Assembly (NCBI RefSeq): GCF_044324875.1
Contig: NZ_CP172185.1
Reading direction: 5' to 3' (one strand)
Length of the DNA stretch: 64,000 nt
From: Escherichia coli
GTDB taxonomy: Bacteria; Pseudomonadota; Gammaproteobacteria; Enterobacterales; Enterobacteriaceae
The notes under the pieces are model-generated. The model saw only the letters and a program-made list of their open reading frames with translations. It searched no databases and was not told the origin of the DNA. Shown here one piece after another: positions 515 through 1,030 of the stretch. The position numbers and the translations under genes were made by a program. Positions within the stretch are counted from its first letter, which is position 1. Each line of letters begins with the position of its first letter.

Positions 515-1030
515 ATGCCGGATACGGCCTATGGTTCGGCACAGACTTGTAGGTCTGATAAGACGCGTCAAGCGTCGCATCAGGCATTGTGCGCCAACTG
601 CCGGATGCGGCGTGAACGCCTTATCCGGCCTACGGTTCGGCACAGACCTGTAGGCATGATAAGACGCGTCAGCGTCGCATCAGGCATTGTGCGCCAACTG
701 CCGGATGCGGCGTGAACGCCTTATCCGGCCTACGGTTCGGCACAGACCTGTAGGCATGATAAGACGCGTCAGCGTCGCATCAGGCATTGTGCGCCAACTG
801 CCGGATGCGGCGTGAACGCCTTATCCGGCCTACGGTTCGGCACAGACATGTAGGCATGATAAGACGCGTCAAGCGTCGCATCTGGCATTGTGCGCCAACT
901 GCCGGATGTGGCGTGAACGCCTTATCCGGCCTACGGTTCGGCACAGACTTGTAGGCATGATAAGACGCGTCAAGCGTCGCATCAGGCATTGTGCGCCAAC
1001 TGCCGGATGCGGCGTAAACGCCTTATCCGG
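515..1030. repeat. Tandem REP/BIME array: about five ~100-bp units, each containing inverted REP palindromes (gccggatgcggcgtgaacgccttatccggcctac)
   Basis: The motif 'caggcattgtgcgccaactgccggatgcggcgtgaacgccttatccggcctacggttcggcacagac' recurs at ~581, 681, 781, 882 and 982; the ORF-track entries here are overlapping on both strands and repeat-derived. Confidence 0.85.

Follow-up and report, generated by a model that had tools for sequence, protein, structure and literature searches.

What fills the gap between the convergent Escherichia coli genes yjjW and yjjV, how did it become so repetitive, and does it do anything for the genes on either side? We address these questions in a 64,000-nucleotide stretch of E. 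coli DNA (NCBI RefSeq assembly GCF_044324875.1, contig NZ_CP172185.1; hereafter the window, numbered from its first letter), in which an initial model-made reading (the original prediction) had described five near-identical tandem units of ~100 bp between the two genes. The feature is an array of bacterial interspersed mosaic elements (BIMEs), an element class described in 1991, in which repetitive extragenic palindromic (REP) units alternate in orientation. Specifically, it is a BIME-2 array, and it is the same locus as the element catalogued as REP352 in strain K-12 and the strain-typing marker ms32, of which the window carries the five-unit allele. The element is therefore already known. 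Taken jointly, the explanation developed below (this identity, tandem amplification of one founder unit, and a role as a shared 3' untranslated region) is one that we hold with high confidence.

The array is a feature without strand at positions 517-1035, and it occupies the whole yjjW-yjjV gap (518 bp). The originally proposed span of 515-1030 was right to within a few bases, the exact array being slightly wider. Tandem Repeats Finder reports a single array at 525-1037 with a period of 101, 5.1 copies, 96% matches, 0% indels and a score of 949, and a repeat search recovered five copies, head-to-tail, spaced 100, 100, 101 and 101 nt apart; both the predicted ~100-bp periodicity and the predicted number of units are thus borne out. 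Repetition here far exceeds chance. The 34-nt palindromic unit Y has seven matches in the 64-kb window at up to three mismatches, compared with none in 100 shuffles, and the 14-nt core of one linker (GGTTCGGCACAGAC) occurs in five exact copies in the window, all of them inside the array.

Exact unit borders were set by cutting the sequence at every GCCGGAT. Dissected in this way, the array consists of five Z2 units, five intact Y units, and one Y remnant, and each unit follows the order Y (34 nt), head-to-head linker S (16 nt), Z2 (38-39 nt), and tail-to-tail linker l (12 nt). At the left end, 3 nt past the yjjW stop codon, lies an internally deleted Y on the - strand (GCCGGATACGGCCTAT; 517-532). 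It opens unit 1, which is 5'-truncated to 83 nt (517-599) and whose remainder (533-599, + strand) comprises S at 533-548, Z2 at 549-587 with its GTAG at 549, and l at 588-599. Four full units of 100, 100, 101, and 101 nt follow, starting at 600, 700, 800, and 901. Unit 2 (600-699) is divided into Y at 600-633 (GTAG on the - strand), S at 634-649, Z2 at 650-687 (+ strand), and l at 688-699; unit 3 (700-799), which is identical to it, into Y at 700-733, S at 734-749, Z2 at 750-787, and l at 788-799. Unit 4 (800-900) comprises Y at 800-833, S at 834-849, Z2 at 850-888, and l at 889-900, and unit 5 (901-1001) comprises Y at 901-934, S at 935-950, Z2 at 951-989, and l at 990-1001. A terminal intact Y (1002-1035, - strand, with its GTAG head at 1032-1035) closes the array. 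The motif GTAGG recurs on the + strand at 549, 650, 750, 850, and 951 (the Z2 units) and on the - strand at 629-633, 729-733, 829-833, 930-934, and 1031-1035 (the Y units).

This anatomy is that of a BIME-2 element, which combines z2 and y in multiple tandem copies with short linkers, is conserved within a locus, and varies in copy number among strains (Ton-Hoang 2012, PMC3333891). In the yjjW-yjjV array, Y and Z2 are imperfect palindromes with a 5' GTAG; REP and inverted REP alternate, with the 16-nt head-to-head and 12-nt tail-to-tail linkers present in every unit; the 5.1 copies match at 96% and differ in number between strains; and the whole lies outside coding sequence, between the yjjW stop (513) and yjjV. 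The REP/BIME identity given in the original prediction is correct, since alternating Y and Z2 palindromes with short linkers define BIME-2. Typing of the units as Y and Z2 rests on comparison with REP325, whose palindromic units were defined under those names (Qian 2015, PMC4550694), and on the Rfam model RF02564.

REP325, the array between yjdM and yjdN and the source of naRNA1-6 and of RF02564, is the best-studied BIME-2. The two arrays share Y and Z2 units that are near-identical in sequence comparison, as well as alternating orientation, a ~100-nt period, and 96% internal match, and units of both pass the naRNA4 covariance model. With a period of 100, 5.8 copies, and 96% matches, K-12 REP325 is equally regular, and BIME-2 copies are in general conserved within each locus; the description of the yjjW-yjjV array as unusually regular was therefore overstated. 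The two differ in their linkers (GGTTCGGCACAGACYT at yjjW-yjjV vs GGAGGGTGCGGGAATTT in REP325, and TGTGCGCCAACT vs GTCGGCACCGTT), in a stem mismatch (GGCATGAT) that is carried by the Z2 units of the yjjW-yjjV array, unlike those of REP325, and in setting, REP325 lying between tandem genes of one operon and the present array between convergent genes. Functional data on HU binding, termination, and stabilization exist for REP325 only.

In K-12 MG1655, the corresponding element is listed in EcoCyc as REP352a-h. Locus, flanking genes, left Y remnant, terminal Y over the yjjV stop, and linkers are all shared with the window. K-12 has four units in a gap of 419 bp, with eight catalogued palindromic units, whereas the window has five units in 518 bp, with ten intact palindromic units plus the remnant, and the internal unit variants differ (types H, I, and J in K-12 vs types B, B, C, and D in the window). 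No repeat features are listed for this gap in the RefSeq record of K-12; the name REP352 is taken here from a mobilome-sequencing study, in which it was among eight long REP regions with exonuclease-protected coverage (bioRxiv 10.1101/2024.07.17.603846). Likewise, ms32 belongs to an MLVA scheme (multiple-locus analysis of tandem repeats that vary in number) for Shigella and E. coli, with a repeat of 101 bp, alleles of 1-5.5, and amplicons of 355-810 bp (PMC8215070, crediting its reference 19). The ms32 primers (Table 1 of PMC8215070), AACTGGCGGCGTTTATCAAG at 329-348 on the + strand with one mismatch and TGAGATTGCCGAAGTGTTGC at 1067-1086 on the - strand with none, each have a unique site in the window and bracket the array, and the predicted amplicon measures 352 bp with one unit and 758 bp with the five of the window. 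Apart from the single mismatch in one primer there is no substantive difference from ms32, and the window represents its five-repeat allele. The array carries little weight as a discovery, the copy-number polymorphism of ms32 having been used in strain typing for years.

Both strands of the array fold readily. Folding energies are -12.5 to -21 kcal/mol for palindromic units taken singly (z -2.8 to -5.2), with values of -21.3 for Y and -15.3 kcal/mol for Z2 in unit 2; ~-47 kcal/mol for Z2-l-Y doublets (z ~-5.7); and -300 (+) and -280 (-) kcal/mol for the entire array (z -11.5 and -10.8). An inverted-repeat search of positions 1-2000 reported none; the palindromes are imperfect and short, but they are seen by folding. 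The doublet at 650-733, for example, folds at -47.6 (+) and -46.5 (-) kcal/mol (z -5.5 and -5.9). In forming one long hairpin of ~-47 kcal/mol from a Z2-l-Y pair, and in bearing GTAG heads on every unit, the array resembles the REPINs of the RAYT/TnpA_REP system. REP352, however, was not called a RAYT-associated REPIN by RAREFAN, unlike seven other long REP arrays (bioRxiv 10.1101/2024.07.17.603846), and whereas REPINs are dispersed, tandem growth of the yjjW-yjjV array looks like in-register duplication.

The expectation that the locus is a copy-number hotspot is confirmed by comparison across strains, with 0-5 units in complete E. coli genomes and ~11 in Escherichia sp. Genomes representing every length class were fetched and decomposed into units. 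The 0-unit allele, a single intact Y, leaves a gap of 33 bp (locus L007); one unit gives 112 bp (Nissle 1917); two units give 213 bp (O157) or, in a variant with an intact first Y, 234 bp (L005); three give 314 bp (L003); four give 414 or 419 bp (L009 and K-12); and five give 515-518 bp (L008, L002, L011, L012, and the window). Among the complete genomes of the collection, which does not include the source of the window, the best match reaches 99.3% over 5.9 kb, as befits a chromosome of the E. coli/Shigella lineage. Two systematic samples were drawn from 5,426 complete genomes, with units read from the match span. In the first (n = 39), alleles of 0, 1, 2, 3, 4, and 5 units were found in 2, 7, 8, 3, 8, and 11 genomes, respectively, and in the second (n = 59), in 3, 16, 11, 6, 7, and 16. 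More than five units were found in neither sample (0 of 98 E. coli genomes). The window, with five, thus stands at the upper limit for E. coli, and its allele belongs to the two most frequent classes. A separate census based on a 39-nt Y/linker junction (median 4 and highest 11 places per genome) was discarded, as it counted 28-30-nt matches to Y units at other loci; genomes H185 ("10 places") and H178 (6 places) in that census both carry ordinary five-unit arrays.

Species-representative genomes were also scanned with a 20-mer over the Y/linker junction (CCGGCCTACGGTTCGGCACA). The scan revealed the array in two other Escherichia species: the 20-mer was found at the yjjW-yjjV locus of Escherichia sp. 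MOD1-EC7003 (L016; flanking open reading frames [ORFs] checked) and in a 2.1-copy array of the same unit (L015). The MOD1-EC7003 array (L016 3230-4346) has 10.9 units in a gap of 1117 bp, about twice the longest array in sampled E. coli, and shows a 201-nt super-period of two units, a pattern suggesting amplification of a dimer. Its contig, of genome-skimming style, holds the 11 units uncollapsed. For assemblies and variant callers, indels of ~100 bp at this array are the expected behavior of a variable-number tandem repeat. Two exact single matches to the 20-mer were also seen in contigs of Rhodocyclaceae metagenome-assembled genomes (L013 4183-4202 and L014 1718-1737), which could reflect chance (~0.5 such matches would be expected across the collection) or contaminating Escherichia sequence in the bins.

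How did such an array come about? Most likely, a single founder unit was amplified locally in tandem. The linkers and the derived mismatch in the Z2 stem are specific to this locus, which argues that the founder was amplified in place and not inserted repeatedly. The derived stem mutation (GGCATGAT instead of GGCCTGAT) is present in 22 of 23 unit types, and the first Z2 of K-12 is canonical, without the mismatch. Copy number would change by whole units, in register, through either replication slippage or unequal homologous recombination. We infer both the amplification and the in-register changes from unit patterns. Alleles of 0-5 units have common end-points; the same unit types are reused in varied number and order (L-O, L-M-N-O, L-U-W-V-O, L-U-F-M-V-O, and L-F-F-M-V-O, each letter denoting a unit type); and identical units stand side by side (B-B in the window and F-F in L011). 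Fixed end-points, reused types, and adjacent duplicates together form the pattern expected from slippage or unequal homologous recombination. TnpA_REP, the REP-associated transposase, might assist in the gain and loss of units; it can cleave and recombine BIMEs in vitro (PMC3333891). The RAYT gene itself is located outside the window.

The left end of the array may have a later history of its own. K-12, Nissle, O157, and others have the Y remnant at this position too, whereas P881 and GPEC60 have an intact Y there. The two-unit allele of DETEC-P881 (L005 614-847), with its intact first Y and 234-bp gap, and the 0-unit allele together suggest that the remnant on the yjjW side arose after the array had formed.

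The genes that meet at the array are those originally named, with NCBIfam profiles and PGAP names in agreement. On the left, the 3' part of yjjW (1-513, + strand, stop codon TGA at 511-513) encodes a glycyl-radical enzyme activase, its ORF at 40-513 (+) matching the TIGR04041 YjjW activase profile over positions 128-275 of 276. On the right, yjjV (1032-1811, - strand, stop codon at 1032-1034) encodes a TatD-family metal-dependent hydrolase of 259 aa, which matches the equivalog NF008522 (PRK11449) on 1035-1811 (-) with 569 bits against a cutoff of 481. PGAP annotation in matching E. coli genomes likewise places yjjW and yjjV at the flanks. The two genes (+ and -, respectively) converge around the array, and the stop codon of yjjV (TAG, read as the reverse complement from 1032-1034) lies inside the GTAG head of the terminal Y. 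Overlap with yjjV is confined to the last 4 nt of this terminal Y (1032-1035), the array being otherwise extragenic; in K-12, REP352 overlaps yjjV by 2 nt (bioRxiv 10.1101/2024.07.17.603846). In the yjjW-yjjV gap, a scan for promoters and terminators returned nothing resembling a sigma-70 promoter or an intrinsic terminator.

As both genes are without an intrinsic terminator, each transcript must enter the array. We propose that the array would serve as the shared 3' untranslated region of yjjW and yjjV, in which transcripts arriving from either side would fold into a row of stable hairpins. Most likely, these hairpins would terminate transcription leakily and in part through Rho, and would block decay by holding up 3'-to-5' exonucleases; at the DNA level, the Y units would be preferred sites of DNA gyrase. 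By analogy with REP325 and other BIME-2 elements, such a bidirectional hairpin array is the likeliest role. REP325 is both a partly Rho-dependent terminator and a stabilizer of upstream mRNA, and convergent genes separated by REPs tend, both of them, to be more highly expressed (bioRxiv 10.64898/2026.03.23.713779). Variation among units is also unevenly placed: across 23 distinct unit types there are 19 variable columns, 2 of 46 in stems and 17 of 55 in loops or linkers (Fisher p = 0.0007), a test that overstates independence and significance in that the compared units are related by duplication.

That kinship among units is one of several points that weigh against parts of this account. The evidence on expression, 3' ends, Rho, and gyrase comes from loci other than yjjW-yjjV and bears on it by analogy. 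Genes with terminal REPs show no significant difference in half-life genome-wide, and inserted REPs do not always stabilize reporters (bioRxiv 10.64898/2026.03.23.713779). The 0-unit allele is found in ~5% and the 1-unit allele in 18-27% of sampled genomes, and alleles so short and so common indicate that a long array is dispensable. Finally, the RAREFAN result on REP352 (bioRxiv 10.1101/2024.07.17.603846) weakens the part assigned to TnpA_REP.

Other explanations differ widely in how much they deserve to be entertained. One would regard the units as genes of the naRNA4 type, their Z2-l-Y modules being processed to a nucleoid-associated RNA of ~77 nt that acts together with HU in bridging cruciform DNA and in condensing the chromosome. 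All five modules match RF02564 (naRNA4) over the full model (positions 1-77 of 77) on the - strand, at 552-630 (77.4 bits), 653-730 (79.1), 753-830 (79.1), 853-931 (68.3), and 954-1032 (78.8), each above the gathering score of 59.5 bits, and HU binding and DNA condensation were reported for the naRNA4 of REP325 (Qian 2015). These best matches fall on the sense strand of yjjV. The units pass the threshold, however, because the model was built from REP325 units; it recognizes any BIME-2 Y-l-Z2 module, including two more in the window at 8669-8862, and the matches are a sign of membership in the repeat family and no evidence for five RNA genes. Moreover, deletion or overexpression of REP325 had no measurable effect on nucleoid compaction in a 2026 preprint (bioRxiv 10.64898/2026.03.23.713779), which undercuts the earlier naRNA4/HU model, and we regard five naRNA4 genes at this locus as improbable. 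Binding of integration host factor (IHF), raised in the original prediction, would make the array an element of the BIME-1/RIP type. The likeness extends to intergenic REP palindromes in inverse orientation, as in BIME-1, RIP, and RIB elements, and to a general tie of some REP elements to IHF (PMC3333891). BIME-1, however, is z1 plus y in single copy, with a long L linker that often holds the IHF site (Ton-Hoang 2012, PMC3333891), and the yjjW-yjjV array shows none of this: it has long Z2-type palindromes in place of Z1, linkers of 16 and 12 nt in place of L, and five tandem copies, and the IHF consensus WATCAANNNNTTR has no match in 515-1035. We therefore rejected the BIME-1/RIP class; IHF binding is not supported and is very improbable here. 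Least credible of all is that at least one ORF in the array encodes a genuine small protein. The array is overlapped by twelve ORFs above the 30-aa minimum (five on the + strand and seven on the -, 35-122 aa long), but three does not divide the period of 100/101 nt, which shifts the frame from unit to unit, the ORFs come and go with copy number, a Pfam scan of the five longest returned no match, and none is annotated in any of 11 distinct genome records with annotation tables. The original prediction of spurious ORFs on both strands therefore stands, and annotators should mask the array, as the 12 ORFs and the five naRNA4 matches are not distinct genes.

Two further alternatives deserve more weight, though each remains doubtful to a similar degree. 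The array could be essentially neutral or selfish repeat DNA, a REPIN-like expansion whose regularity reflects recent duplication and gene conversion and not selection. Copy number varies freely, healthy E. coli lineages having 0-5 units and a related species 11, identical adjacent units point to recent duplication, and terminal REPs lack a genome-wide effect on half-life, as noted above. Set against this, variation spares the stems in the proportions given above, at least one Y unit is kept even in the 0-unit allele (L007), and the sister array REP325 measurably affects its neighbors (bioRxiv 10.64898/2026.03.23.713779). Alternatively, the primary role may lie on the DNA, the array being a strong, transcription-independent gyrase site that would absorb positive supercoils between convergent yjjIW and yjjUV and act as a topological insulator. 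BIME-2 elements hold significantly more gyrase cleavage sites than expected, with a preference for Y over Z2 (Sutormin 2018, PMC6379681), the cleavage is independent of transcription with a signal that rises when transcription is blocked (PMC6379681), and five intact Y units lie between these convergent genes. Only a subset of BIME-2 elements has such cleavage sites, however, the named examples being sucC-sucB and tldD-yhdP (PMC6379681), and neither yjjV nor yjjW is mentioned in the available part of that study's supplements. Gyrase binding, as originally predicted, is thus documented for the class, but an entry for this locus was not found in that part of the source. A gyrase site would in any case be compatible with a role in RNA. 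We retain the shared 3' untranslated region as the preferred explanation of function.

An otherwise familiar element leaves a single open angle: do natural differences in unit number modulate how strongly its two convergent neighbors are expressed? In REP325, the complete array of 12 hairpins shows Rho dependence, whereas 2-4 hairpins do not (bioRxiv 10.64898/2026.03.23.713779); a 10-hairpin allele such as that of the window could then terminate or insulate the convergent yjjIW and yjjUV transcripts, while 0-2-unit alleles would not. By this analogy, the alleles (0-5 units in E. coli and 11 in the sister species) might form a heritable rheostat of the two genes, which we consider unlikely but worth stating. 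If it were true, strains would differ in how they express their glycyl-radical enzyme system and TatD-like hydrolase, with promoters and coding sequence unchanged. The natural series of 0-5-unit alleles with fixed end-points suits tests of the recent proposal that REP arrays between convergent genes are terminators and stabilizers whose effect depends on length.

Some observations concern the surroundings of the array. The 3' end of yjjV has two haplotypes among the genomes compared (window 1032-1050 and L006 700-790). The first, in which a YjjV of 259 aa (...ALFNVP*) takes its TAG stop from the GTAG head of an intact terminal Y, is that of the window, K-12, GPEC60, and Escherichia sp.; in the second, found in Nissle, O157, F070, AZ146, and CE0021a, YjjV is 260 aa long (...ALFSVSG*) and is followed by TTTACCCTTC and an internally deleted Y (GCCGGATGCTGCCTAC). 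Positions 1-1800 of the window differ from FDAARGOS_497 (L002 3001-4800) at 28 sites clustered at 27-297 and 1356-1628, with one difference (position 909) within 298-1355. With 1 difference in 518 nt vs ~2% in the flanks, the array might seem to be specially conserved, a reading that we rejected, as the low-divergence tract runs well into both genes; it looks like an ordinary recombination-tract mosaic covering the array and both gene ends. A rearrangement or insertion at or beside the array is hinted at in genome H160 (NZ_CP122872.1, ETEC1718), where the yjjV side alone of the 0-unit query (554-1315) aligns at the best place and a second place is found at another point of the record.

Other repeats occur in the window. 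A second BIME-2-like array lies at 8630-8881 (period 111, 2.3 copies, 92% matches), between a 343-aa ORF (7592-8623, + strand) and a tRNA-Leu cluster; it has a Y variant (GTCGGATGCGGCGTGAACGCCTTATCCGACCTAC) and linkers of its own, and its two naRNA4 matches, on the - strand, score 75 and 65 bits. The cluster at 9002-9325 comprises three tandem tRNA-Leu(CAG) genes of 87 nt each with a period of 121, and its order and context fit a leuQPV-type cluster of E. coli. Finally, a 24-nt tandem repeat at 49400-49582 (7.6 copies, 85% matches, consensus CAATGACAGTACCGATAAACAAGC) may lie within coding sequence, as its period is a multiple of three.

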